Source of the DNA: an uncultured Verrucomicrobiota bacterium
GTDB taxonomy: Bacteria; Verrucomicrobiota; Verrucomicrobiia; Limisphaerales; UBA8199
NCBI GenBank assembly: GCA_964631605.1
Contig: CAZVYG010000014.1
Location: 13,446 to 77,445, forward strand
Reading direction: 5' to 3'
Length of the DNA stretch: 64,000 nucleotides
Part shown: positions 3,952-64,000 of the stretch, one piece after another
Numbering within the stretch: the first letter of the stretch is position 1
How the letters are laid out: each line of letters begins with the position of its first letter
Position numbers and translations under genes: made by a program
Notes under the pieces: model-generated
Seen by the model: only the letters and a program-made list of their open reading frames with translations
Databases searched by the model: none
Told to the model about the DNA's origin: nothing

Positions 3952-4028
3952 GAGCGGCCGGAGGGCGGCCGCACATTCCGCCGCAGTTCGGTTGAAGTCC
4001 AGACCCCATCCGAGCGTCTGATCTTCCA

Positions 4029-5375
4029 ATGCTCACGCGGGCCGAAAATGTTTTTTGCCGGGTCGCGGTTGGTGTTGCCGCACTGGCTTCGATTGCGGCA
4101 AGTCCGGGTCCTTCTTCCCGCCGGGCTTTGGACGTTGCGCCGGTCTGGACCGGCCACCCCGTCGGGTTCCACTCTCTGCTCGCGAGCAACCGCCAGTTTG
4201 TGGCCTTTTTCGATGCCGAACGCCGGATGACGGTTGCCGCGCGCAGCCTGACCGAAACCAACTGGACCTTTGCAGTCCTGCCTGAAACGCTGGGGTGGGA
4301 CAGCCACAATTACGTGACTTTCGCCCTGGATCAGGCCGGCCATGTCCACCTCAGCGGCAACATGCACGCCAAGCCCCTCGTCTATTTCCGCACCACCCGG
4401 GCGCTGGACATTCATTCTCTGGAGCGGGTTCCGGCAATGACCGGCCTGCAGGAACAGCGCGTAACTTATCCCCGCTTCTTCACCGGGCCGGCTGGTGATT
4501 TGATTTTTACCTACCGCGACGGCGGCAGCGGCAACGGCGATCAAATCTACAACATTTACGACGCGCCAACCCGGTCCTGGCGGCGGCTCCTGAAGGGTCC
4601 CTTGATTTCCGGCGAGGGTCAGAAAAGCGCCTACCTCCATGGCCCTGTGCGCGGACCAGACGGGTTTTACCATTTGGTTTGGATTTGGCGCGAGACCCCC
4701 GATTGCGCGACGTCACATTGCATCTGCTATGCGCGCAGCCGGGACTTGGTGAACTGGGAAACCAGCCGCGGGACGCCGCTGTTGCTCCCGATCACCTTCC
4801 AGACCGGCGAGGTGGTGGACCCCGTCCCCATGCACGGGGGCGCGGTCAACGGCAATGTCGCCCTCGGCTTCGACGCCCAAAAGCGGCCGATTGTTTCCTA
4901 TCACAAGTTCGACGCGAACGGCTTCACCCAGGTCTATAACACGCGTCTCGAAAATGGCCGGTGGGTTCAGCATCAGGCAACCGATTGGAGGCATCGCTGG
5001 GAGTTTGGTGGCGGCGGCTCGATCCCCTTCGAGGTTCGCGTCGGCCCGGTCAACCTCGACGCGGCCAACCAATTGACCCAGCACTTTTCCAGCCGCGAAA
5101 AAGACTCGGGCACATGGCTGCTCGATGACCGGAACCTCAGGCCGATGCGCCGCGTCCCGGCGGCGGATGCCGGAATCGCCGACCTGCGGAAGGTCCGGTC
5201 AGCCTTCCCCGGCATGCAGGTTCACCTCGTGCCGGTGCAGGGTTCCAACACCGGCCCGGCAACCCTCTGGTTGCGCTGGGAAACTCTGGACGCGAACCGC
5301 GACCGGCCTCGCACGCGTCCGTTGCCCCCGCCCGGCAGGCTCGAAGTTTACGAAATCGCTCAACCGAAACCCTGA
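4029..5375 (+). CDS. BNR-4 repeat-containing (sialidase-fold-like) protein, probably secreted
   Basis: 448 aa with a hydrophobic N-terminus. The block HNYVTFALDQAGHVHLSGNMHAKPLVYFRT and the repeated W/Y-rich beta-propeller-like segments recall the BNR-4 family (PF15892). Assigned from memory. Confidence 0.6.
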   Translation: MLTRAENVFCRVAVGVAALASIAASPGPSSRRALDVAPVWTGHPVGFHSLLASNRQFVAFFDAERRMTVAARSLTETNWTFAVLPETLGWDSHNYVTFALDQAGHVHLSGNMHAKPLVYFRTTRALDIHSLERVPAMTGLQEQRVTYPRFFTGPAGDLIFTYRDGGSGNGDQIYNIYDAPTRSWRRLLKGPLISGEGQKSAYLHGPVRGPDGFYHLVWIWRETPDCATSHCICYARSRDLVNWETSRGTPLLLPITFQTGEVVDPVPMHGGAVNGNVALGFDAQKRPIVSYHKFDANGFTQVYNTRLENGRWVQHQATDWRHRWEFGGGGSIPFEVRVGPVNLDAANQLTQHFSSREKDSGTWLLDDRNLRPMRRVPAADAGIADLRKVRSAFPGMQVHLVPVQGSNTGPATLWLRWETLDANRDRPRTRPLPPPGRLEVYEIAQPKP

Positions 5376-5472
5376 ACCCAACGCAGCCCCACGCTGTCCC
5401 TGTCAGCGGCTAGGCTGGGCAATCCGTGCGAAAATGCATTTCAACCGCAACGCGGTTGCGCTGGCTTTGGAT

Positions 5473-7818
5473 TCACCTCCCGTCCGCATGGCGCAACCTT
5501 TTCGAGGCGGGTCTGTTCTGCTCATTGGCAACCGGAGCCAGTTGCTGGGCGAACTCCTTGATCTGTGTGTGGAGGCCAAGCACGAGCAATTCATCCCCCA
5601 CTTGGAAGGAGTCCCGCCCGCTGGGCGAGAGAATCCGCTGAGCACCGCGCCGAATGCCGCCGATTTGAATGCCATATTTGCGGATAAGGTCCAATTCCGC
5701 CAACGGGCGGCCCGCCAGCGGACAACCCGGCGGCACCGCCACCGTTTCCATCGTCAGCTCATCGAAACCCGTCTGCCATTCCGAGGCGGATTCATAGTTG
5801 AGCAACTTCCGCCTTGCCCGTGCCAACTCCGCATGGCCGCCGAGCAACAAAAGCTTGTCGTGGGGATAAAGCACCGTCTCAGCGCCGGGATTGACCAGAC
5901 TGTAGCCCTGCCGGTCAATGCCCACCACCGAGCAACCGAACTCGCTGCGCAGCGCAAGTTGGCCCAGGGTTTTGCCCGCGTGCGGTGTGTCGCCGGGCAA
6001 AGTGACTTCATCAATTTCGAGCTTCCAATCGGTGGTCTGCTGCGGCAGGTAGTCGGACCACGCGGAAGCTGAGGTTGGCTGGCTGGCGCGATGCAACTGC
6101 TCCAGCAACTCGATCTCGACCCGGCTTTGCCATTTGATGAAGCGCCGCCAGAAGACCACCGCCACCACCCCCAGCAACAGCACCACCCCGCCTGCCGCAC
6201 CCAGCAGCGACCATCCGCTGGGCAACAGCGCCAGCAGCCAGGCCGCCAGCACGCCCAGCGCCACCGCGGTCAGCGCCCGCTCGAGCAACGGACGCAAGAT
6301 GCGCTGTCGCCGCACCCCGGTTGTCGCGGCGTCCGCCACCATCATGGACAGCGCAACAATATTGCGCCAAATCGCGATCAGCGGGGCCAGCAGCACCGCC
6401 CCGAACAGACTCCAAAACACAAACGGCAACGCCTGCGGGAAGGGCCCGTCGGCTTCCAGGCTCCCGCGAGCCCGCTCATAAATCGGGCGCACAAACAACA
6501 GCAAAGCGGAGACAAACAGGACATAAACGCCCACCTGGAGCAAACGCTTCCGCGTGAGCCGCCACAGAATCCCCGCCGTCTGGCGCGTGCGCAGCCGCAG
6601 GAGCCAGTCATGATAGAAATCCACCCACTGGCGCAGGAAGCGGGGCTCCATCCGCGCCAGGCGTTCGCTGAGCGGCTCGGCATGACGTGTCAGCACAGGC
6701 GCGGCCAGCGCCGTCAGCAGGGCCGCTCCCGCCGCCACTGGATAAACGCTTTTCGGCAGCAGCCCCGTTTCCACCCCCAATTGCGCGATGACGAACGTGA
6801 ATTCGCCCAGCGGCACCAGCGACAAGCCGGCCTGGATGGACTCGCGGCTCGAGTTCCCGACCACAATGAAGCCCAGGGTGCAGGCCAGCGGCCGCAATCC
6901 CAGGGCCAGAACGGTCACCACGATCAAATAGGGCCAGGCCTCCCGCAACAGCCGAAAATCCACCATCATTCCGACTGCGACAAAAAACACCGCGCCAAAA
7001 AGCTGTCGCAAACCGTCAAAACCGCGTTCGATATCGCTCTTATAGCGCGTGCTGCCGACCACCACCCCAAAAATAAACGCGCCCAGGGCCAGCGAATACC
7101 CCACGTAAACCGCCAGCGATGCCAGGGATAGAAGCACCCCCGCCACCACCAGCGTGCGGATTTCCAGCGTCGCCTCGCGGCTCAGCCGGGTGAGCAGCTT
7201 TGGGATGATCAACAGCGACATCACCGCCAGAAACACAATAAACGCGCCCAGGGTTCCCAGGGTCGGCAGCAGCGAGGGCGACGCGGCGCCCTGGTACCGC
7301 GCCAGCGACGACAACAGCGTCAGCATCGTAATGGCCACCAGGTCCTCGAGCACCGTCACTGCCAGCGCCAGTTGGCCGGGACGCTCGTGGGTGAGGTTCA
7401 GTTCCTCCAGCACCTTGCTGATGATGGCCGAACTGGAAACCATCAACATCCCGGCAAGGAAAAGGCTCGCGGTGGTCGTCCAGCCCATCGCCCAGCCAAA
7501 GATGCGGCAGCCGTTCAACACCAGGACCGCGCTGATGACCGTGGCGACCACGGTGGAAAGCCCCAGCCGCTTCAACCGGCTCAGGCTCAGGTTCAGTCCA
7601 ATGGAAAACACCAGGAACACCAGCCCGATTTGCGCCAGAGTCTGAACCCGCTCCAAGTCGGCCACCAGGGCAAACGGCGGCGTAAACGGCCCGATGATGG
7701 TGCCCGCAACCAGGTAGCCCACGACAGCCGACAAACCCAGCCGCTGGCAAATCCACGCCGCAATCCCGGCTGTCACCAACACCACCGCCAGGTCTCGAAT
7801 GAAGACGATGCCCGTCAT
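5473..7818 (-). CDS. cation:proton antiporter (CPA2/Kef-like) with two C-terminal RCK/TrkA-C domains
   Basis: ORF 5473..7944. The likely start is MTGIVFIRDLAVVLVTAGIAAWICQRLGLSAVVGYLVAGTIIGP, a typical Na_H_Exchanger N-terminus. The protein has many TM segments. Two TrkA-C-like repeats lie near the C-terminus (LPGDTPHAGKTLGQLALRSEFGCSVVGIDRQG and VPPGCPLAGRPLAELDLIRKYGIQIGGIRRG). Confidence 0.85.
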   Translation of the reverse strand: MTGIVFIRDLAVVLVTAGIAAWICQRLGLSAVVGYLVAGTIIGPFTPPFALVADLERVQTLAQIGLVFLVFSIGLNLSLSRLKRLGLSTVVATVISAVLVLNGCRIFGWAMGWTTTASLFLAGMLMVSSSAIISKVLEELNLTHERPGQLALAVTVLEDLVAITMLTLLSSLARYQGAASPSLLPTLGTLGAFIVFLAVMSLLIIPKLLTRLSREATLEIRTLVVAGVLLSLASLAVYVGYSLALGAFIFGVVVGSTRYKSDIERGFDGLRQLFGAVFFVAVGMMVDFRLLREAWPYLIVVTVLALGLRPLACTLGFIVVGNSSRESIQAGLSLVPLGEFTFVIAQLGVETGLLPKSVYPVAAGAALLTALAAPVLTRHAEPLSERLARMEPRFLRQWVDFYHDWLLRLRTRQTAGILWRLTRKRLLQVGVYVLFVSALLLFVRPIYERARGSLEADGPFPQALPFVFWSLFGAVLLAPLIAIWRNIVALSMMVADAATTGVRRQRILRPLLERALTAVALGVLAAWLLALLPSGWSLLGAAGGVVLLLGVVAVVFWRRFIKWQSRVEIELLEQLHRASQPTSASAWSDYLPQQTTDWKLEIDEVTLPGDTPHAGKTLGQLALRSEFGCSVVGIDRQGYSLVNPGAETVLYPHDKLLLLGGHAELARARRKLLNYESASEWQTGFDELTMETVAVPPGCPLAGRPLAELDLIRKYGIQIGGIRRGAQRILSPSGRDSFQVGDELLVLGLHTQIKEFAQQLAPVANEQNRPASKRLRHADGR

Positions 7819-7837
7819 AATCGGCTGGTGCCCAAGC

Positions 7838-9646
7838 TTACTGGAACCGGTAATTCCACCGGCGGTTGGGCGCGCTGTCGCCGTTGACACCCAGCTCGGA
7901 CACCTCGCCGAAACTCTGCACGTTGTCCGCCCAGTGAAAATCAAATGCCGGCGCCTTTCCTACGTCCTGGCCCACCGCCTTGCGCGCCAGGCTCAACTCC
8001 ATCCCGTTGCCGTTGACGCGGTACTCGGCCCGTCCAACCGTCTGCCAACTGCCGGCCCGCCAGGCTTTCACCGTGGTCTCGGTCTCTCCCGGCACCTCGA
8101 GGTTGATGATAAAATCGTACCCGAGCCAGCCGGTGCCACCGTTCTGGTCGGCATCCAGGAGCAACAGCATCCAGTGCGGATCCGTTCGCGGAGTGATCCG
8201 CTCCCGCGTCTGAACGAAAAAGAACAGCCGGCGGGCGTCATAGGCCGCTTTGGCAATCACAAAATCGTTGCGTCCCGTATCGTTCCGATACACCACGCCG
8301 CCGTAGCCCGGGTGCTCCCGGTGGATGGTGTCGCCGATCGTGTCCCGGTACTCCGGCGCCACCCCCCGCCAGTCTTCGAACTCGCCGTCAATCCGAATCC
8401 GGCTCGGGCCCGGCGATGTGGGCGGCGGGCGGACGCCTTTGAACCGGCGCACATAGCCGGCCAGTTGATAATAGTAGTTGTCGGTGTGGCCGCCCCGCAT
8501 GGGCTCGCAGTCGCGGCTGTATTCCTGCGTGTATTGGTCCACAAACAGCCCGCCAGGAAAGTAGCAATCCGCGTCGGTGTACTTGCTCCAGCGCGTGTAG
8601 CGTCCGGCGGTCCACTCATTCCAGCCGGTGACGAAGATGAACTCCGGGTCGGCCCGCAGGGCGTGTTCCCATTGCTCCGCGAAGTTCAGGCCGAGGTTCA
8701 CCGCCTCCGGGCGCGGGTCCTTGCCGCCGTCGTGCCAACTTCGCCCCATCGCCCCCTGTTTGTGGCTCATCGGCGCCGGTCCGGGCGTGTTGGGCAGCGC
8801 ATTCTGTGCCACTCCCACGCTCATCTGCTCGAGCTCGCCCACGCGGTTTGTGAACCCATGCTGCGGATGCACCTCCAGCCAGCTCCATTGGTCGGGGCCG
8901 CTCGGCCCCAGCCAGTAATCCGGCATCGGCCGCCGGAATGTAAAAAATTCCACCATTTCCGGCGCCTCAAGATATTCCTTGTTGGCCAGCAACAGAGGCT
9001 TGCCCCTCCAAAGATACCACAACTCCCGCCAAAGACCGGGGCTGTATAAATCACGCCAGAGCCGGTCCGTGACCGGTCGCGGGTCGCCGAACGGCGCGAT
9101 GAAAGCGATGGCGGGAGTGCGTGCTCCCTCGCGTCTCATGGCGGTGTATTCACGGCACAAGGCCTCGTACTGGTCCTTCCACGTGAACGGGGGATTCGTC
9201 GTGTCGAACAGGATGACGTCTATGCCCGCGTCCGCCAGCGCGCTGGCGTGCTTCCGGATCACGAAGGGGTCGGTCATGATGTAGTAGCCCAGCTCCGGTT
9301 CGCCCCAGTGATGCGGCGCGCCGTTCGCCGGCCAGGCAATCCTGCCGTCCTTCGCCGTGGCGATGAGCCGCGTGTTGTCGTTGGGCCCCCCCGACCGGGG
9401 CACATGCCACGTCCAATAGAAAATACCCACCTGCTTCCCCGGCCGCACTGGGCCACATTCTTTCCGCCCGGGAACCACCCGGCCCGCGCCATCGGTCGCC
9501 ACCCACGTGTCGGCGAACACATCCTCCCCCGCGTAAGGCCGCCCCTCGTATTGGGCTGCGGCCGTCGGCCGGCCCCCGCCAAGCATGCCCCACACGGCGA
9601 GCGCCGCAAGTAGGTTGCGCCCCCGGAACAGAAAGCTCATCGCCAT
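7838..9646 (-). CDS. secreted putative glycoside hydrolase (TIM-barrel-like, GWNEW motif) with a C-terminal beta-sandwich domain
   Basis: ORF 7838..9763. A signal-peptide-like start, MAMSFLFRGRNLLAALAVWGMLGG, lies at 9646. Motifs GIFYWTWH, DVILFDTTN and FVTGWNEWTAG resemble GH99/GH71-like families. The family assignment is uncertain. Confidence 0.55.
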   Translation of the reverse strand: MAMSFLFRGRNLLAALAVWGMLGGGRPTAAAQYEGRPYAGEDVFADTWVATDGAGRVVPGRKECGPVRPGKQVGIFYWTWHVPRSGGPNDNTRLIATAKDGRIAWPANGAPHHWGEPELGYYIMTDPFVIRKHASALADAGIDVILFDTTNPPFTWKDQYEALCREYTAMRREGARTPAIAFIAPFGDPRPVTDRLWRDLYSPGLWRELWYLWRGKPLLLANKEYLEAPEMVEFFTFRRPMPDYWLGPSGPDQWSWLEVHPQHGFTNRVGELEQMSVGVAQNALPNTPGPAPMSHKQGAMGRSWHDGGKDPRPEAVNLGLNFAEQWEHALRADPEFIFVTGWNEWTAGRYTRWSKYTDADCYFPGGLFVDQYTQEYSRDCEPMRGGHTDNYYYQLAGYVRRFKGVRPPPTSPGPSRIRIDGEFEDWRGVAPEYRDTIGDTIHREHPGYGGVVYRNDTGRNDFVIAKAAYDARRLFFFVQTRERITPRTDPHWMLLLLDADQNGGTGWLGYDFIINLEVPGETETTVKAWRAGSWQTVGRAEYRVNGNGMELSLARKAVGQDVGKAPAFDFHWADNVQSFGEVSELGVNGDSAPNRRWNYRFQ

Positions 9647-57297: not shown

Positions 57298-57379
57298 GGT
57301 CGTTGTTTCCTATCGGCCATCCTCGGACCCGCCGCCAACAATGTCAAGGCGCGTCTGCATTGGCCAGCCGCGTCGTGGG

Positions 57380-57421
57380 GCGGAGCTCCGCTCTGCCGGT
57401 AACCGGAAACTCCGTTTCCGG
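57380..57421. promoter_or_regulatory. two adjacent palindromic elements in the divergent intergenic region upstream of dndC
   Basis: A 12-bp perfect palindrome, GCGGAGCTCCGC (57380-57391), lies 11 nt from an 8-bp-arm inverted repeat, CCGGAAAC-TCC-GTTTCCGG (57403-57421). Any function is inferred. Confidence 0.3.
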
Positions 57422-57626
57422 GTTTGTACGGGGCGCGGCGGAACCGCAGACTGCCTTGCAGAGCAAGCCGCAACCGGAAGGTCGGAGACTTGCTCCACCC
57501 GGGCCACGAGAAACGGCTCAATCCTTGCGGACCCGGCGTTTCAAAGCGTGACGGAAGGCGCGTTGCTCCAGCGCGGTTCCGAGCGGACGACAACGGTAAA
57601 GTCGGCCGCCGCCCGTCGCGCTGCGG

Positions 57627-58982
57627 GTGAACACGGAGTTGACGCTCGGCGTCCTTCGCGACACACTGCCGACGATGGCAGCAGCGACGTACCAGGAAAT
57701 CCAAGATTCACTCCGGCAGCTCTATCTTGAGGACGCCCGTCCCTGGCTTGTCGGCTTCAGCGGGGGCAAGGATTCCACCTTGGTAGCTGCGCTGGTGTTC
57801 GACGCCATCCTGTCCCTTCCGCCGGGGCAACGCACCAAGCCCGTTACTGTTCTTTGCACCGATACGCGGGTGGAAATCCCGGCCATTGCCGAGGGCGTTG
57901 AGAGCACGCTGGAGCGGATGCGCCGGTGCTCTGAACGCGAGGGACTCAACATCGAAGCCCACTTGCTCAAACCCCCGCCCGAACAATCCTTCTGGGTCAA
58001 CATTATCGGGCGCGGCTACCCGCCGCCCAACCGCAGCTTTCGCTGGTGCACCCAGCGCCTGAAGATTGACCCGGTCACAAGCTTTGTGCAGAAACGCCTG
58101 GGCGGCGGCCACTGGAGCGAAGCCATCCTGCACCTCGGTGCGCGCCGCGCCGAAAGCTCAACCCGCGCGCAGACCATGGCCGGTCGCGAGAAACGCAACG
58201 GCCTCAACCGGCATCCCGATCTCCCACGTGTCTGGGTTTCTAACCCCATCGAATTCCTCACCACGGAACAAGTCTGGGCCTATCTGCTCCAGAAACCGAA
58301 TCCCTGGGGCGGCGACAACCGCCCGCTATACAAACTCTACGCCAGTGCCGCCAACGGCGAATGTCCCATCCAGATTGATACCAGCACGCCCAGTTGCGGC
58401 CACTCCCGCTTCGGCTGCTGGACCTGTACGGTTGTTGACCGCGACAAAGCCAGCGAGGGTCTCCTCGCCGCGGGCGATGAACGCATGGAACATCTCATCG
58501 AGTTCCGCGAAACCCTTCGGCTCTACCAAGACCCCGCCAACGGCAAACGTGACCCCAAGCGCAAGAACGGCACCGACGGCCCGGGTCCCCTCACCATCGA
58601 GGCCCGCCGCGAACTGCTCGCCATACTGCTCAGGCTTCAGGAGCAGGTGGGCTTTCCCCTCATCAGCGACGACGAACTCTTTCTCATCCAACAATTCTGG
58701 AGAAGCGCGCGGCGACCGGACGATGGCGGCGGCGTCGCGCGCATCGTCACCCGCCAGAAAGGCATCCTTATGAGCGACTGGAAAGAGACCAACCGGCTAC
58801 GCGAACTTCAGGAGGAAGTCGCCGCAGAAAAAGGCATCCGTGCCGACACCTTGCGTCGGCTGCTGGCCAAAGTGGATGAATACAGCGAAAGCCACCGCGC
58901 CTTCGGCCTGCCGGATGACCTACTCAACATCCTCAAGGACGATTTGGAACACGAGCAGGAGGAGGGAAAGAAGAATGCCTGA
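57627..58982 (+). CDS. dndC: DNA phosphorothioation sulfurtransferase DndC (PAPS-reductase/ATP-pyrophosphatase fold, Fe-S)
   Basis: P-loop PWLVGFSGGKDST. It also has RWCTQRLKI and the Cys cluster CPIQIDTSTPSCGHSRFGCWTCTVVDRDKA, which is characteristic of DndC. The start is GTG 57627 or, perhaps more likely, ATG 57675 (MAAATYQEIQ). Confidence 0.85.
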   Translation: MNTELTLGVLRDTLPTMAAATYQEIQDSLRQLYLEDARPWLVGFSGGKDSTLVAALVFDAILSLPPGQRTKPVTVLCTDTRVEIPAIAEGVESTLERMRRCSEREGLNIEAHLLKPPPEQSFWVNIIGRGYPPPNRSFRWCTQRLKIDPVTSFVQKRLGGGHWSEAILHLGARRAESSTRAQTMAGREKRNGLNRHPDLPRVWVSNPIEFLTTEQVWAYLLQKPNPWGGDNRPLYKLYASAANGECPIQIDTSTPSCGHSRFGCWTCTVVDRDKASEGLLAAGDERMEHLIEFRETLRLYQDPANGKRDPKRKNGTDGPGPLTIEARRELLAILLRLQEQVGFPLISDDELFLIQQFWRSARRPDDGGGVARIVTRQKGILMSDWKETNRLRELQEEVAAEKGIRADTLRRLLAKVDEYSESHRAFGLPDDLLNILKDDLEHEQEEGKKNA

Positions 58983-61035
58983 AGTTTACATTGATTCGCT
59001 GACGGTGCGCAACTTTGGCCCTTATTACGGCGAGCACACATTTAACTTCGCAACCCACGATGACCGCTGCGGCATTCTTATAGGTGGGAAGAACGGAGCC
59101 GGCAAGACGCATCTTCTTCGTGCGTTGTATTTGGCGGTCGTCGGTGAAACCGGTGTCCACGACTTGAAGAAAGTTGAACCGTCTTCGGAAGCGACACGCT
59201 TTGCCTTCGACAAATCATTGAACCGGCGCGCGGAGGCAGAGGGTGATTTTAATACACTGCTTCAGGTTACGATTTCACAGCGTGACGACAAGGGCACAAG
59301 AAAGGCGATGTTGGTGCGCGAAATTCGCCACAGGCCAAACTCCGCACCGGTTTGGCGCTCATACGCTGAGCGCTTTGATGGTTCAGGGCGCATCGAGGAC
59401 GAAAAACATCTCGAAGCCCTTCGAGATGCGTTCCTACCCCGTCACTTGGCGCGGTTCTTCTTCTTTGATGCTGAGCGCGGACAGAATTTCAATCTCGGCC
59501 AACAAGAGATTGTCGAGGGCATCAGCCGCATTCTGGGTCTGTGGTCTTACGGCGAACTGGAAACCGACTTGAGGCAACTAATTCAATCGAAGATTCAGCG
59601 AACTTTCAACACCGCCGAAGGCCATGAGGCGGCCAAACGTCTGGCAGAAATCACCGGGCAGATTGTGACCGCCGAAAAGCAACTAATCAATCTTCGCGAG
59701 GAGTTAAGCAGCTTGGCCGTTGAATTGTGTGAAGCACAGAATGAGTTGGCAGAGGTTGAGGAGCGCCTTAAAAGCTTGGGTGCAGTTGACCCGACACAGT
59801 TGCAGCGGGCACAAGAGGAACGCGCGAAGCTAGCTGAGACAAAAGCCAGGCTCGAAGCTGAGTTAACGGCGGTCTGGGAAACGGCCATGCCGCTGGCCTT
59901 GCTTGGAAAGTATCGCAAAGAATTCCACGATTACCTCCTCCGCGAGGAGAAGCGCAGAGAGTGGGAAAATAGCAAAGCGACGGTCGAGCCAAAAATCCCG
60001 CAGGTGAAGTGTGACGTATTTGAAAATGCTCCATCAGAGTTTCGTCTCGCAGACGACGCTTTCGCTTTCTACACGGATCGTCTCGAACGCGCCTTGCATC
60101 GCTTGTTCCATCCGCCGCCAGAAGGTATGGCAGACAGCGTTTACGCGACGGATAGAAACGACCGAAGCGCACAAATCCGGGCACAACTTTCTTCCGGCAC
60201 AACTTCATTGCGTGCCATTGCGGAGTTATGTGCCCAGGTCGAGTCAGTAGATGCGAATCTCCGGAAGTTGGACACCCAACTAAAGCAGTTGAAGCAGGAT
60301 GCCGCAGCGGTAGAGATCGGCCAGCAGTTGCACGCTGACCGGGGCCGGTTGACCGAACAATGCGCAAATCTGGAGCGCCGGAAATCGGAGCTCAAGTCAC
60401 AAGTCGAGTCCCTCGAATCAAAACTGAAAGAACTCAAGCGGGAGGAATCCAATCTCACCACTGCCGCCTCTAAGGCCCGGCAGGGACAAACATTGATTTC
60501 TCTGGCGGCTCGATATCGCGAGGCCGCAACCGAGATACGCGCTCGCGCTGCCGACCAGTTGCGCCGTCAGATTGGCGAGCATGTGGGCGAGCTTTGGGTC
60601 GAAATTACCGAGCGCCGGCATGAGTTCCTAGGAATGGATTTCGACAAGAACTGGAATTGCTTCCTGCTTCGCAAGGATGGAAAGAGGGATACATGGGAGA
60701 ACACCAATACCTCTGCGGGACAGCGGCAGGTGCGAATGCTTGCGTTCTACGAGGCGTTGCGTCGTCTTGCAAAACTCGCGCCGCCCCTCGTCGTAGACAC
60801 GCCGTTAGGTAGACTAGACAACGAAGTGAAGGATTCCGTCCTTCATCAGCTTTACTTGACCGGCCACCAAACAATCATCCTGACGACGAACTCGGAGATC
60901 GATCCGGAAGGTCCACTGTTCGAGGAAGTCGCGGAGAGGCTTGCGCGAGTTTACACCTTGCATCCCCGCGGGAGGGAGGAAAGCATCAACTACGAAGTCG
61001 AAGTCACGAACGATTATTTCGGGAGAACAGTATGA
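58975..61035 (+). CDS. dndD: DndD-like SMC/ABC-type ATPase (DNA sulfur modification protein DndD)
   Basis: 686 aa. The N-terminus is IDSLTVRNFGPYYGEHTFNF with Walker A GGKNGAGKTHLL. A long coiled-coil middle region follows. Then come the signature-like SAGQRQVRMLAFYEAL and the DndD-typical Walker B/D-loop PLVVDTPLGRLDNEV...IILTTNSEI. The ATG at 58975 overlaps the dndC stop codon by 8 nt. Confidence 0.8.
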   Translation: MPEVYIDSLTVRNFGPYYGEHTFNFATHDDRCGILIGGKNGAGKTHLLRALYLAVVGETGVHDLKKVEPSSEATRFAFDKSLNRRAEAEGDFNTLLQVTISQRDDKGTRKAMLVREIRHRPNSAPVWRSYAERFDGSGRIEDEKHLEALRDAFLPRHLARFFFFDAERGQNFNLGQQEIVEGISRILGLWSYGELETDLRQLIQSKIQRTFNTAEGHEAAKRLAEITGQIVTAEKQLINLREELSSLAVELCEAQNELAEVEERLKSLGAVDPTQLQRAQEERAKLAETKARLEAELTAVWETAMPLALLGKYRKEFHDYLLREEKRREWENSKATVEPKIPQVKCDVFENAPSEFRLADDAFAFYTDRLERALHRLFHPPPEGMADSVYATDRNDRSAQIRAQLSSGTTSLRAIAELCAQVESVDANLRKLDTQLKQLKQDAAAVEIGQQLHADRGRLTEQCANLERRKSELKSQVESLESKLKELKREESNLTTAASKARQGQTLISLAARYREAATEIRARAADQLRRQIGEHVGELWVEITERRHEFLGMDFDKNWNCFLLRKDGKRDTWENTNTSAGQRQVRMLAFYEALRRLAKLAPPLVVDTPLGRLDNEVKDSVLHQLYLTGHQTIILTTNSEIDPEGPLFEEVAERLARVYTLHPRGREESINYEVEVTNDYFGRTV

Positions 61036-61415
61036 ACATCAAAAGCTGGTGGGATTACGCGGAGTATCATCATGAGACCGGATTAGACCGGACTGACCGT
61101 GCGTCTGCTTGGGAAGAGCGGAGTTGTGTCGCCCGCGTCATGCGACTCGACCACAGTGGCGAGGACCGCTTTTATGTCGCTCCAGCAAACGACGGATCAT
61201 GGCACGCGTGGGGTGATTGGCACGCGCGCGTTGATGGCCGGAACGACTCCAGAGCAACTGTGATATCTGGGGAGGCGGATGACGCGACCTACACTCTCGC
61301 TAACGGAGGCGCGCATTTCCCAAGTCGCGAGGTGGCGATGCTTGCCATCTACCGCTGGATTCACCGCGACTTTGAATTGGACTTGCAGAACCCGAAAGCC
61401 AAGCTCGCCGTATGA
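61032..61415 (+). CDS. hypothetical Trp/His/Asp-rich 127-aa protein inside the dnd-like operon
   Basis: Both ends overlap neighbouring genes by ATGA (61032-61035 and 61412-61415), which implies translational coupling. The sequence contains MNIKSWWDYAEYHHETGLDR...DGSWHAWGDWHARVDGRND. No family recognised. Confidence 0.6.
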   Translation: MNIKSWWDYAEYHHETGLDRTDRASAWEERSCVARVMRLDHSGEDRFYVAPANDGSWHAWGDWHARVDGRNDSRATVISGEADDATYTLANGGAHFPSREVAMLAIYRWIHRDFELDLQNPKAKLAV

Positions 61416-62899
61416 AATTCAAACCGAGCCTCGCTGCCGAGGAATTTATTGAATCTGTTCACCAGCGCGTTGGCGCGCGAACCAAAGCAGTGTTGAGCCG
61501 GTCAGCGTTGTTGCTCGCCATTGGCGAGGGCGTGCCGGCAGGTTTCAAGCCAGCGGATTCACAGGGCAAAGACTTGGACGATGAAAACGTCATCGGGGAT
61601 GAATTGCGCGACACCGTGCGGGCGGCGTTGAATCATCGCGCGGGCAAAGCGTTGGACGAGTCCGGCTACCGGACAGCTTTCCGCCAGCACTTCGAATACG
61701 GCTGCAAGCGGTTAAAGGAGATTTGGGATGAAGCCGGCGGTGACCAGACACGCTTCGTCGCCTCGCTGCTGAAAATCGCGGGCGAAGACTTCACCGGCAC
61801 AGGTGGATTCACTGCCCGTGTCCAGCCGCTTCCGGTGGTTGAAAAGGAAGTCAAACTCAAGGTGCTGAACGACGCGCCTGAATGGTCGGTCAACGGCCCA
61901 GGCACAAATAACGGCTTGCTGGTGATTTCCGGCCAGCCTGGTAGCGGCAAGAGCCAACTCGCGCTTGATTTGCTCGCGCAACTCACCGCCTACGGCGTCC
62001 GGTTCGTATTCTTCGACATGAAGGGTGAGTTGGAAAACGATCCCAACAACTCGCAGCAGAGCCAGACTCGCGCCCGGTTTCTGCACCAGACGGGCGCGGA
62101 CTATGTCCGGCTCGTCCGCCAGGATTTGCCCATCAATCCGCTCTATCACGATGCGAATCCGGCGGTGAACGCCCAGATCGCCAACGAGATCGCTTCGCTC
62201 ATCCGCTGTTTCGCCCCCCAGTTGGGCGCGAACCAGCAGCAGGCCATCAGCGATGCTTACCAAAACCTGGCCACGCCGGATTTTCCTGGGCTGCTGATGG
62301 AATTGCAGCAGAGCGGCGTCTCTGGCGTGCCAGTGGCACTCATCCGCCGAATCGTGGATTACAATTTGTTCGCGTCCGCGCAGACGGCCGTCAGCCCGGA
62401 GCAATGGCTCCGGCGTTCGCTGGTGATTGATTTCAAGGAGTTCGGCAACGACAGCGAAACCAAGGCCCTCGCGGTCGCGCTAATCCTAAATTTCCTGATC
62501 AAGAAGTTGAGCCAGCAACTCGCGGTGAAAAATGACATCCAGCCGCTCAAGATGGTGCTGTTCGTGGACGAAGCGCATTTGTTGCTGCCCAAGGAGAGCA
62601 AGGCCGGCCTGCTCAGTTCCCTGGCGCGGCAGGGTCGGTCGTGGGGTTTCCCCGTCTGGCTGGCGTCGCAGGATGCAGACAAGTTCCTGACTACCGGCAC
62701 GAACGAAACCAATTTTGCCCAACTCGCCGAGTGCGGGGTCCACTTCTCGCCGCAGACGCTAAGCCCCGCGGACCAAAAGAGCGTCCTCGGCAGCTTGATC
62801 AACCAGAAGTTCAAAAAGGCGGAAGCCGCCTTGTGTCAACGCGCCAAGCTCCAAACCACCGGCCCGGCCCGGCAGTTTTGGAAGGATGGAGGAAAGTAG
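61412..62899 (+). CDS. fusion protein: DndE-like N-terminal domain plus FtsK/HerA(VirB4)-type P-loop ATPase
   Basis: Residues 1 to about 125 follow the DndE pattern (KPSLAAEEFIESV...LSRSALLLAIGEG...DSQGKDLDDENVIGDEL...FRQHFEYGCKRLKEIW). The ATPase has Walker A LLVISGQPGSGKSQLALDL, Walker B MVLFVDEAHLLLP and an Arg-finger/sensor region LARQGRSWGFPVWLASQDADKF. The DndE-like call is pattern recognition only. Confidence 0.6.
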   Translation: MKFKPSLAAEEFIESVHQRVGARTKAVLSRSALLLAIGEGVPAGFKPADSQGKDLDDENVIGDELRDTVRAALNHRAGKALDESGYRTAFRQHFEYGCKRLKEIWDEAGGDQTRFVASLLKIAGEDFTGTGGFTARVQPLPVVEKEVKLKVLNDAPEWSVNGPGTNNGLLVISGQPGSGKSQLALDLLAQLTAYGVRFVFFDMKGELENDPNNSQQSQTRARFLHQTGADYVRLVRQDLPINPLYHDANPAVNAQIANEIASLIRCFAPQLGANQQQAISDAYQNLATPDFPGLLMELQQSGVSGVPVALIRRIVDYNLFASAQTAVSPEQWLRRSLVIDFKEFGNDSETKALAVALILNFLIKKLSQQLAVKNDIQPLKMVLFVDEAHLLLPKESKAGLLSSLARQGRSWGFPVWLASQDADKFLTTGTNETNFAQLAECGVHFSPQTLSPADQKSVLGSLINQKFKKAEAALCQRAKLQTTGPARQFWKDGGK

Positions 62900-62910
62900 A
62901 AACCAACAGC

Positions 62911-63462
62911 ATGAAAATTCCATTCAAACGAATCTGGTCGGAAAAGCGATATGATCTGAAGCATTGGCTCTTTTACAACTTGCTTATCAGCCTCTCGCCG
63001 ATTTGGTTGTCGTGCCTGTTTCTGGCTTTTGGCAAGGTTTTCCGATTCCTTGATCCTTTCCTCGACGGGAGGTTGCTCATATTCACCGCAACGTTGAGCG
63101 GTGCTTCCATGAACTTCTTCGTTACAGATACGAAGCTGAACCTTCGTAACACGGAGCGATTCCTTTTCAACGGGTTGCTTGCCGCCATCTTCCTCGGTGC
63201 GGGCGGTTACACAGCGATTGTCACTCTGAACCAATTCTCACCGGGGGCGCTATGGTCGCCTGTGGTTGTGCTTACAACTATCATCGCCTTGGGGCTCGCA
63301 GTTTACTTCAACCTGTATCTCGCAGGCGTGCGCAGCGTTTACACGGATCAAGAGTTGATGCGAAAATTGATCGAAGAAGAACAAGACGTGCTGGTGAAGG
63401 AGAAAAAGGTCTTGGCTGAGACGGCTCGGACTGCGAGCGAAGTAGACGGAGCGAGACTATGA
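62911..63462 (+). CDS. 4-TM membrane protein with a charged C-terminal helix, in the dnd-like operon
   Basis: 183 aa. The ATG at 62911 is 11 nt after the upstream stop codon. Four hydrophobic spans are visible (WLFYNLLISLSPIWLSCLFLAF; LLIFTATLSGASMNFFV; FLFNGLLAAIFLGAGGYTAIVTL; VVVLTTIIALGLAVYFNLYLAGV). The tail reads ELMRKLIEEEQDVLVKEKKVLAE. The stop codon overlaps the next ATG (ATGA at 63459-63462). Confidence 0.6.
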   Translation: MKIPFKRIWSEKRYDLKHWLFYNLLISLSPIWLSCLFLAFGKVFRFLDPFLDGRLLIFTATLSGASMNFFVTDTKLNLRNTERFLFNGLLAAIFLGAGGYTAIVTLNQFSPGALWSPVVVLTTIIALGLAVYFNLYLAGVRSVYTDQELMRKLIEEEQDVLVKEKKVLAETARTASEVDGARL

Positions 63463-64000
63463 ACGGCAACAGTGGCCAGACCAACGGTTCGATTGACATA
63501 AAGGTTCTGGAGGTTGCTCAACCTTTGGGAACATTTTACGTCGGCGTAATGAAAGCCAATGACCTGCGAAAAATCGCCGCCGCGGACACCCGCCGCCAAG
63601 AACAGCGCGAAGTAGAAATCTACACAGGCATCCAACGTGAGCTTTCCAAAAAGAGGCAGGCGGAGATCAAAGACTACATTTCGACGTTCGACGCCGCGTT
63701 CCCGAACTCCTTTATTATCGCAATTAAGGCCGAAGATGTATTGAGCCAAGACGGAGGAGTTCTAAGAATCCGCTCGCATGAGAAAGCGGCAAGCATAATT
63801 GACGGACAGCACCGTCTTGCCGGGTTCACCGAATTTAACAGCGATAACTTTGAGTTGATTGTCTCCATTTTCATTGATTTACCCATCGAAGACCAGGCGA
63901 TGTTGTTCGCCACCATCAATCTCAAGCAGACAAAAGTCAGCCCTTCTCTCGTTTACGACTTGTTTGAGGAAACGAAGTTGAGGTCGCCTCAGAAAAGTTG
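63459..64000 (+). CDS. DGQHR-domain (DndB-like, ParB-fold) protein, truncated by the window end
   Basis: The literal motif IIDGQHRLAG is at residues about 113-122. Upstream lies LGTFYVGVMKANDLRKIA and downstream FATINLKQTKV, as in the DndB/DGQHR families. The frame is still open at 64000. Confidence 0.8.
   Translation, partial: MNGNSGQTNGSIDIKVLEVAQPLGTFYVGVMKANDLRKIAAADTRRQEQREVEIYTGIQRELSKKRQAEIKDYISTFDAAFPNSFIIAIKAEDVLSQDGGVLRIRSHEKAASIIDGQHRLAGFTEFNSDNFELIVSIFIDLPIEDQAMLFATINLKQTKVSPSLVYDLFEETKLRSPQKS

Follow-up and report, generated by a model that had tools for sequence, protein, structure and literature searches.

Gene organization of the phosphorothioation island

The window, i.e. 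the whole stretch of 64,000 nucleotides of DNA that was analysed, carries near its 3′ end a DNA phosphorothioation (PT) island composed of dndC, dndD, orf127, dndEi, a membrane protein gene and a dndB-like gene, with a convergent dndA located just outside the window. The genes lie in the following order:

57627..58982, plus strand: dndC, PP-loop/PAPS-reductase-type phosphorothioation sulfurtransferase of 451 aa (TIGR03183, PADLOC DndC)
58975..61035, plus strand: dndD, start taken at MPEVYID, with an 8-nt overlap with the end of dndC
61032..61415, plus strand: orf127, conserved 127-aa protein, with an ATGA start/stop overlap at either end
61412-62899, plus strand: dndEi, uninterrupted fusion ORF of 495 aa
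62911..63462, plus strand: predicted multi-pass (4-TM) membrane protein of 183 aa, read from the sequence, 11 nt 3′ of dndEi
63459..64000, plus strand: 5′ part of a dndB-like (DGQHR/ParB-superfamily) gene, cut at the window end, its ATG overlapping the preceding stop codon

From dndC to the dndB-like gene, the spacing consists of overlaps of 8, 4 and 4 nt, a gap of 11 nt and a final overlap of 4 nt. The dndC product matched NCBIfam TIGR03183 (E 4.2e-109; 365 bits against a cut-off of 290) and the PADLOC profile DndC (E 2.5e-121). The dndD product matched TIGR03185 with 174 bits (E 4.2e-51), which is under the cut-off of 245.9, as well as the PADLOC profiles DndD (E 2.3e-65) and PbeC (E 8.4e-61); the dndD gene call on the longer contig L081 is 686 aa. 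No family match was obtained for orf127 in Pfam, NCBIfam or PADLOC. Its 15 database matches comprised one identical copy and 14 homologues with 54-76% identity, and many Trp, Tyr and Arg residues are invariant in the family. An AF2 model of orf127 of moderate-to-low confidence (pLDDT 62) gave no fold match in the PDB (E >= 1). At locus L056, a weak homologue of orf127 likewise lies between dndD and dndEi.

The 183-aa membrane protein showed a weak match to SLATT_2 (E 0.013-0.017), below the cut-off. It is encoded on all three contigs with an identical dndEi, and at locus L031 it is conserved at 77% and followed by the same dndB-like gene. A long frame at 62641-63462 was also considered; its first 90 codons are an overlap-frame artefact and the real downstream gene begins at 62911. 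The dndB-like gene matched Pfam DndB PF14072 (E 5.3e-15; 55.7 bits against a cut-off of 29.1), and its full 366-aa product on L081 matched PADLOC DpdB (E 5.2e-28). Among 80 related loci, 27 carry such a gene 3′ of dndEi. On L081, it is followed by the convergent dndA (PADLOC DndA, E 3e-143) and then by a housekeeping SDR gene.

A separate dndE was found neither within the window nor on L081, and the fusion occupies its place, as expected in the preliminary description of this DNA, which had proposed an operon lacking a conventional dndE. A DndFGH or Pbe module was likewise absent from the island on L081. The window contains no tRNA genes or tandem repeats and thus gives no clue to an integration site. 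A plasmid collection yielded a single weak match, to the ATPase only, in Rhizobium, and thus no evidence for a plasmid-borne cluster.

Domain architecture of the dndEi product

The fusion ORF was divided into the following parts, all on the plus strand:

61412..61777, plus strand: DndE domain, residues 1-122 (PF08870, pLDDT 82-93, Foldseek, domain profile)
61778..61915, plus strand: inter-domain linker, residues 123-168, with low model confidence at 124-137 and 155-168
61916..62899, plus strand: HerA/FtsK-type ATPase domain (motif positions, invariant residues, fold matches)
61931-61954, plus strand: Walker A GQPGSGKS, residues 174-181, invariant in 34 homologues
62555-62578, plus strand: Walker B VLFVDEAH, residues 382-389, invariant in 34 homologues
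62627-62671, plus strand: arginine-finger region RQGRSWG and sensor-1 Q420, invariant in 34 homologues

The preliminary description had read the product of 61412-62899 as a DndE-like part continuing into a P-loop ATPase, and each of the motifs quoted there could be located at defined residues: SRSALLLAIGEG at 29-40, DSQGKDLDDENVIGDEL at 49-65, FRQHFEYGCKRLKEIW at 90-105, VDEAH at 385-389, QGRSWG at 407-412 and ASQ at 418-420. The reported resemblance to the H-x-x-RG-x-x-L end of DndE has to be amended in one detail; in this dndEi clade the motif reads HFEYGCKRL, with Tyr in place of Arg. The sister clade retains HWHRGAxLL.

The N-terminal DndE domain

DndE proteins bind (nicked) dsDNA through surface lysines. 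Pfam PF08870 matched residues 3-103 of the dndEi product over profile positions 2-105 of 111 (E 8.4e-7) with 29.7 bits, exceeding the curated gathering cut-off of 25 bits. Searches of PDB sequences with the single sequence or with a whole-protein profile missed DndE, while a profile of the N-domain only matched the solved DndE 7x4e (E 9.6e-5). In the AlphaFold model, residues 1-122 showed a pLDDT of 82-93. A first unit comprises strand 2-3 and helices 7-16 and 25-39, a second unit comprises strand 55-56 and helices 57-77 and 83-107, and these are followed by helix 112-122. The modelled domain is accordingly described as two tandem ribbon-helix-helix (RHH) units with a C-terminal helix, the arrangement by which DndE is defined (PMC10853773). 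Foldseek superposed the model on 7x4e with a TM score of 0.78 (rmsd 2.5 Å, 110 columns), on 5wtu_C with 0.75 and on 4lrv_C with 0.73, at a sequence identity to the solved DndE proteins of about 16-18%. The Pfam score above the cut-off, the TM scores of 0.73-0.78 and the profile match to 7x4e substantiate the earlier assignment of the first 125 or so residues to a DndE domain.

With stand-alone DndE (PF08870; 4lrv, 5wtu, 7x4e) the N-domain shares the fold of two RHH units and a C-terminal helix and the DndD partner in the operon, dndD lying immediately upstream of dndEi with orf127 alone between them. It differs in being covalently attached to a 330-residue ATPase and in reading HFEYG where the stand-alone protein has HxxRG.

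The linker and the C-terminal ATPase domain

HerA/FtsK-class ATPases form hexameric rings that translocate DNA, and the related VirB4/TrwB ATPases are encoded together with T4SS/conjugation genes, the coupling proteins having an N-terminal membrane anchor. In the linker of the dndEi product, residues V143, E146, L149, P156, W158, S159, N161 and G162 were invariant among 34 homologues. Downstream of it, a predicted strand at 415-419 is followed by Q420, with R406 and R409 upstream, all of them invariant in the same homologues; in alignments, R409 and Q420 fall opposite the corresponding R and Q of YjgR and DptH. HerA/FtsK ATPases are marked by a Q sensor-1 where core strand 4 ends and by an arginine finger just upstream (PMC10853773), and the C-domain possesses both, together with intact Walker A and B motifs. 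Membership in this class suggests a dsDNA translocase.

The C-terminal part matched Pfam AAA_10 and HerA_C, and among PDB sequences the HerA-like helicase YjgR and DptH. In PADLOC, the best match of the ATPase domain was mad8 (PDLC04140; E 2.5e-16, residues 167-438), and DndH was matched at its positions 1367-1651 (E 3.2e-15). The best fold match was the DndH C-domain 7es4 (E 2.9e-9; 22% identity over 301 columns), followed by VirB4 4ag6 (2.4e-6), HerA 4d2i (1.8e-5) and TrwB 1e9s (3.3e-5), although confidence in the AlphaFold model of this part was only moderate, with pLDDT <50 at residues 395-450. Both the proposal of a complete HerA/FtsK-type P-loop ATPase behind the N-domain and that of its kinship with the C-terminal ATPase class of DndH/DptH are borne out by these motifs, profiles and folds.

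With the DndH/DptH C-domain (7es4) the protein shares the Walker motifs, the arginine finger and the Q sensor-1. DndH, however, is a restriction subunit of about 1700 aa in which SF2 helicase-like, TRD, inactive methylase and REase domains precede the ATPase (PMC10853773), whereas the dndEi protein has 495 aa and no nuclease or methylase domain detected by Pfam, and it was not classed as such a subunit. The likeness to mad8 of the MADS defence system is limited to the ATPase domain, and no other MADS genes were seen near dndEi. A type IV secretion ATPase of VirB4/TrwB kind was rejected on account of the dnd-gene neighbours, NCBIfam VirB4/TraC scores far below the cut-offs and an N-terminus consisting of a DndE domain.

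Distribution, accessory slot and mosaic evolution

A relative of dndEi was present in 99 species-level genomes. Nearly all of 80 related loci, which belong to the phyla or classes Verrucomicrobiota, Nitrospirota, Planctomycetota, Acidobacteriota, Binatia, Desulfobacterota, Proteobacteria and Bacteroidia, kept the order dndC-dndD-dndEi. Lateral spread has carried this common fusion into at least eight phyla, most of the bacteria being uncultured. Overall identity of the dndEi protein to the closest homologues detected in Bacteroidia was 46-52%. In the Bacteroidia-type clade, identity was only 21% for DndD and 20-30% for the DndE module, compared with 45% for DndC and 54-59% for the ATPase, a pattern of sequence divergence that fits a recognition pair of DndD and DndE placed on a more conserved motor. 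This mosaic evolution of DndD and the DndE module versus the ATPase is a minor new detail.

Another is the variable accessory-gene slot between dndD and dndEi, occupied here by orf127. In about 38 of 63 related loci the two genes overlap or directly abut; elsewhere the slot holds an unrelated family of ~85 aa (17 loci) or a Mrr-type nuclease (two loci). Loci L051, L053, L071, L074 and L078-L080 were considered as a stand-alone ATPase variant and are better read as decayed clusters, in which dndD and the 5′ half of dndEi have been replaced by HNH, DUF5131 or HSDR_N-type genes. In L053 and several other decayed clusters the replaced part includes the Walker A region.

Relation to published DndE fusions

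The preliminary description had implied that the fusion was novel, which does not stand: the architecture has been published as DndEi (PMC6435447, PMC7464106) and in PMC10853773. According to the account in PMC6435447, the DndEi of Riemerella anatipestifer is an extended DndE with an ATPase/helicase domain that phosphorothioation needs (Zheng 2016); the extra domain shows both ATPase and helicase activity, its inactivation abolishes PT, and GAAC/GTTC DNA raises the ATPase activity. The 2016 paper, as rendered there, uses the term 'helicase'. DndEi is listed for R. anatipestifer ATCC 11845, Flavobacterium indicum and Kordia algicida (Barbier 2013; Zheng 2016; as cited in PMC6435447 and PMC7464106). 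Comparative genomics further placed DndE-fused HerA/FtsK domains in a clade shared with some DndH and adjoining a DndD-related ABC ATPase (Rakesh, Aravind and Krishnan 2024, PMC10853773). The DndE-HerA/FtsK fusion is already known, widespread and biochemically tested in another bacterium.

Like DndEi, the present protein combines a DndE part and an ATPase/helicase domain in one polypeptide and replaces dndE in a dnd cluster. This likeness rests on architecture and gene context, the R. anatipestifer protein being compared by its description. Neither a search started from a Bacteroidia relative nor the clusters of ten distant full-length relatives gave a named Riemerella, Flavobacterium or Kordia homologue, and none was found in the supplement of PMC10853773. 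In contrast to the published proteins, the present clade is spread in Verrucomicrobiota, Nitrospirota and others, its Bacteroidia relatives being 46-52% identical. With HerA/FtsK clade-3 of PMC10853773 it shares the DndE fusion, the DndH C-domain as the nearest structure and an adjacent DndD-related ATPase, which here scored below the strict DndD cut-off. From the description of that clade and the sequence similarity to DndH/DptH, placement in clade-3 is inferred.

Discussion

The analysis confirmed that the dndEi ORF consists of a DndE module and a HerA/FtsK ATPase within a DNA phosphorothioation operon. A sequencing or assembly frameshift that joined a small dndE to a separate ATPase gene, as considered in the preliminary description, would accord with the low-confidence modelling of linker residues 124-168, but the identical 495-aa protein was found on three independent metagenome contigs from different samples, and more than 100 homologues of 492-497 aa with 70-84% identity carried PF08870 together with AAA_10/HerA_C. 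PF08870 was also present in eight of ten tested relatives of ~500 aa at 24-32% identity, most of which also matched DUF87/HerA_C and two FtsK_SpoIIIE, which answers the question of co-occurrence of PF08870 with DUF87/FtsK-HerA raised in the preliminary description. Full-length homologues with this architecture number in the hundreds and come from many phyla, relatives are present in 99 genomes, the linker has invariant residues, and the architecture had already been published. A systematic error common to all these assemblies is implausible in view of how far their sequences have diverged; the fusion is one real gene, and a frameshift origin can be given practically no weight. It is also very improbable, if less extremely so, that the N-terminal module is a generic RHH regulator, such as an operon repressor, set on an ATPase without DndE-type target recognition. 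DndE itself is a member of the RHH (MetJ/Arc) superfamily, the Pfam score of 29.7 bits is modest, and the canonical HxxRG has YG for RG in this clade. The curated cut-off was nevertheless exceeded, and the duplicated RHH with a C-terminal helix is specific to DndE and superposes on three DndE structures. The domain profile, moreover, matched a solved DndE by sequence, and the N-domain co-varies with the adjoining DndD, as reported for DndD-DndE pairs in PMC10853773.

Slightly more weight, though still little, is due to a function mainly on the restriction or defence side, in which a DndH-like motor would intercept or pump invader DNA instead of serving as a modification subunit. In its favour, the ATPase has its closest relatives, by structure and in PADLOC, in the DndH/DptH C-domain and in mad8. 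DndFGH and Pbe modules are missing from the island, and downstream of the fusion lie genes for a membrane protein and for a DGQHR protein. Against this, the protein has no nuclease domain, the fusion takes the position of dndE after dndD in a conserved dndC-dndD-dndEi order, any other dndE is absent, and PT modification itself depends on the extra domain in R. anatipestifer, as described in PMC6435447.

We consider, with a probability of roughly 0.85, that the product is a hybrid DndE of the DndEi type, in which ~45 linker residues connect an N-terminal double-RHH DndE module for DNA binding with a C-terminal HerA/FtsK ATPase, and that it is the DndE-equivalent subunit of a complete PT-modification island. 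Following what has been published on DndEi and on DndD/DndE, recognition of the target motif would fall to the DndE module and its co-evolving DndD partner. ATP would then be spent by the ATPase, probably a ring-forming translocase or helicase, on opening or moving the DNA locally, which would let DndC put the sulfur mobilised by DndA into the backbone. Stimulation of the ATPase by target-motif DNA would be expected.

A further proposal, judged as a single whole, is doubtful, although less so than the alternatives above. The dndD-dndEi junction may be a slot for interchangeable small partners (the orf127 family, the ~85-aa family and the Mrr-type nuclease), and these partners, together with the 4-TM and DGQHR proteins, could modulate or arm a DndD-DndEi scanning complex. 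If this were true, a modification-only island without DndFGH or Pbe would be a self-contained defence system. Separately, DndD and the DndE module appear to be swapped together, as a cassette that sets specificity, while DndC and the ATPase motor are more conserved.

What is added here, namely the wide spread of the fusion, the joint divergence of the DndE module and DndD beside a more conserved motor and DndC, and the collection of uncharacterised small genes at the dndD-dndEi junction, provides useful annotations that are unsurprising to specialists. The fusion of DndE to a motor ATPase shows that ATP-driven handling of DNA, linked to the recognition of sites, is a requirement of phosphorothioation, a point made before, by experiment for DndEi of R. 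anatipestifer and in 2024 through comparative genomics.

A DndE domain fused to a HerA/FtsK-type ATPase

The fusion gene dndEi was found to be an uninterrupted ORF encoding 495 aa (61412-62899, + strand), and all motifs quoted in the preliminary description were recovered in it where they had been placed.

Motifs of the dndEi product
residues 29-40, SRSALLLAIGEG
residues 49-65, DSQGKDLDDENVIGDEL
residues 90-105, FRQHFEYGCKRLKEIW
residues 174-181, GQPGSGKS
residues 385-389, VDEAH
residues 407-412, QGRSWG
residues 418-420, ASQ

The Pfam DndE profile (PF08870) matched residues 3-103 over profile positions 2-105 of 111 (E 8.4e-7), with a score of 29.7 bits exceeding the curated cut-off of 25. In an AlphaFold2 model built from 34 homologues, residues 1-122 (pLDDT 82-93) were folded as strand-helix-helix, strand-helix-helix and one more helix, which corresponds to the definition of DndE as a duplicated ribbon-helix-helix (RHH) followed by a C-terminal helix (PMC10853773). 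Foldseek matched this domain to the solved DndE structures 7x4e (TM 0.78, rmsd 2.5 A, 110 columns), 5wtu_C (TM 0.75) and 4lrv_C (TM 0.73), and a profile of the N-domain alone also matched 7x4e by sequence (E 9.6e-5). Both the Pfam score and the fold thus bear out the proposed N-terminal DndE domain. The described end resembling H-x-x-RG-x-x-L was present at residues 90-105, but its RG reads YG; the clade carries HFEYGCKRL in place of the canonical HxxRGxxL, and HWHRGAxLL is retained in a sister clade.

A linker (residues 123-168), poorly modelled yet containing residues invariant among homologues, leads into a P-loop ATPase at residues ~169 to 480. The C-terminal part was matched by AAA_10 and HerA_C of Pfam and by the PADLOC profiles mad8 (E 2.5e-16) and DndH (positions 1367-1651, E 3.2e-15). 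The HerA-like helicase YjgR and DptH were the sequence matches in the PDB, and in the fold comparison 7es4, the C-domain of DndH, ranked first (E 2.9e-9), ahead of VirB4, HerA and TrwB. Q420, which follows a predicted strand at 415-419, and R406/R409 are the counterparts of the Q sensor-1 and arginine finger given as hallmarks of the HerA/FtsK class (PMC10853773); these residues and both Walker motifs were invariant in the 34 homologues. The earlier assignment to a complete HerA/FtsK-type ATPase, related to the C-terminal class of DndH/DptH, is in agreement with these matches.

Conservation and spread of the fusion

The fusion of DndE and ATPase is genuine. Three independent metagenome contigs encode the identical 495-aa protein, and the PF08870 plus AAA_10/HerA_C architecture recurs in over 100 proteins (492-497 aa, 70-84% identity), some already named 'DndE family protein'. 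Representatives clustered at 50% identity were also searched exhaustively with HMMER, which yielded many proteins of ~500 aa aligning end to end at just 24-32% identity. PF08870 was detected in eight of ten such relatives tested, most of which also carried DUF87/HerA_C and two FtsK_SpoIIIE as well, so the co-occurrence raised as a check in the preliminary description was observed. These conservation data exclude an artificial joining of two genes by a frameshift.

A scan of species-representative genomes gave 99 loci with relatives, in Verrucomicrobiota, Nitrospirota, Planctomycetota, Acidobacteriota, Binatia, Desulfobacterota, Proteobacteria and Bacteroidia. The occurrence of 70-84% identical proteins in at least eight phyla indicates lateral transfer.

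Gene context

The dndEi gene lies within a tight operon on the + strand.

Genes of the dnd operon in the window
57627-58982, +, dndC (TIGR03183 above cut-off)
58975-61035, +, dndD (PADLOC DndD, E 2.3e-65; NCBIfam DndD below cut-off)
61032-61415, +, orf127, encoding 127 aa; ATGA overlaps with dndD and dndEi (translational coupling to both)
61412-62899, +, dndEi
62911-63462, +, 183-aa multi-pass membrane protein (sub-threshold SLATT_2 resemblance only, E about 0.015)
63459-64000, +, dndB-like DGQHR gene, cut at the window end (PF14072, E 5.3e-15)

On L081, a longer contig encoding the identical protein, the DndB-like gene is complete (366 aa; best PADLOC match DpdB, E 5.2e-28) and is followed by a convergent dndA (PADLOC DndA, E 3e-143) and a short-chain dehydrogenase gene, which marks the island end. 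Upstream, dndC is preceded by genes for a sugar ABC transporter and for a small secreted protein. G+C falls from ~0.66 to 0.54-0.58 across the island (about 57300-64000). The window has no tRNA gene, no annotated gene beside the island resembles an integrase or transposase, and the island, including its extension on L081, has no DndFGH or Pbe module. No second DndE-like ORF was present in the window; the operon lacks a conventional dndE, as had been proposed.

The order dndC-dndD-dndEi was kept in nearly all of 80 related loci, and a dndB-like gene lay downstream of dndEi in 27 of them. The membrane protein gene is translationally coupled to the DGQHR/DndB-family gene (L081:11500-13148), and the pair also follows dndEi in one related locus (L031; 77% and 87% identity). 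The two could form a regulator or effector pair.

The dndD-dndEi junction was a variable slot among the related loci. It was empty in about 38 of 63 (4-nt overlap or gap <25 nt). In 17 loci it was occupied by a family of 80-94 aa that lacks annotation and shows the motif IMREDIFHSTLDWQTR, and in two by a HARE-HTH plus Mrr_cat restriction endonuclease (Mrr_cat, E 3.3e-23); examples of the slot are L031:4751-5035, L001:7736-8011, L014:7138-8004 and L042:7174-8004. The orf127 family occupied it in the window and, as a weak homologue, in L056. The orf127 product gave no family match and no recognisable fold; its database matches comprised one identical copy and 14 homologues (54-76% identity), in which numerous Trp/Tyr/Arg residues are invariant. 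Several of these homologues appear to share a contig with a dndEi homologue.

Decayed dnd clusters were observed in seven loci (L051, L053, L071, L074, L078-L080; around 4000-9000 in each). These loci retain dndC together with the 3' two-thirds of dndEi, whose identity to the window protein reaches 92%. Other genes, among them HNH endonuclease, DUF5131 and HSDR_N-like ones, have taken the place of dndD and of the DndE-domain end of dndEi (its 5' half). The Walker A region is also replaced in L053 and several others, and L053 still has a dndA-like gene downstream.

Mosaic evolution and role

The window protein was compared with P0004/P0009 and P0121-P0161, and DndD with that of L075 and L077. 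Diverged relatives of the Bacteroidia-type clade were 21% identical in DndD and 20-30% in the DndE module, but about 45% in DndC and 54-59% in the ATPase. The closest relatives showed the reverse order, with 92-93% in the DndE module, 86-89% in DndD and 77-79% in the ATPase. Since identity levels of DndD and the DndE module run together in both comparisons, the two behave as one evolutionary unit apart from the motor, which suggests that this unit has been exchanged, or has evolved, separately from it.

The C-terminal kinship with DndH might point to a DndH-like restriction role; this is unlikely, as the protein has no nuclease domain and occupies the dndE position with no other dndE present. 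It is similarly improbable that the N-terminal module is a generic RHH regulator, given its DndE-specific fold, its Pfam score and its co-variation with DndD. The gene context rules out a T4SS ATPase. In a complete phosphorothioation (PT) system, this protein is the counterpart of the DndE subunit and is equipped with its own motor; the preliminary interpretation is supported.

The window fusion shares its architecture with the published description of DndEi, the 'extended' or 'hybrid' DndE, reported in Riemerella, Flavobacterium indicum and Kordia (PMC6435447) and in Prevotella and Bacteroides (PMC7464106); a clade of DndE-fused HerA/FtsK domains also supplies some DndH C-termini (PMC10853773). 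As the architecture has already been published twice, the interpretation is correct and the fusion is of a known kind, not new at that level. In Riemerella anatipestifer DndEi, ATPase and helicase activity reside in the extra domain; GAAC/GTTC DNA strongly stimulates the ATPase, and PT is lost when the domain is inactivated (reviewed in PMC6435447). Target recognition and DNA scanning are attributed to DndE with a co-evolving DndD partner (PMC10853773). From these published functions, coupling of RHH recognition to the motor is expected, and the co-divergence of DndD and the DndE module lends it comparative support. By analogy, site recognition by the RHH module would be coupled to opening or translocating the DNA at the expense of ATP, which would enable DndC to insert sulfur delivered from DndA.
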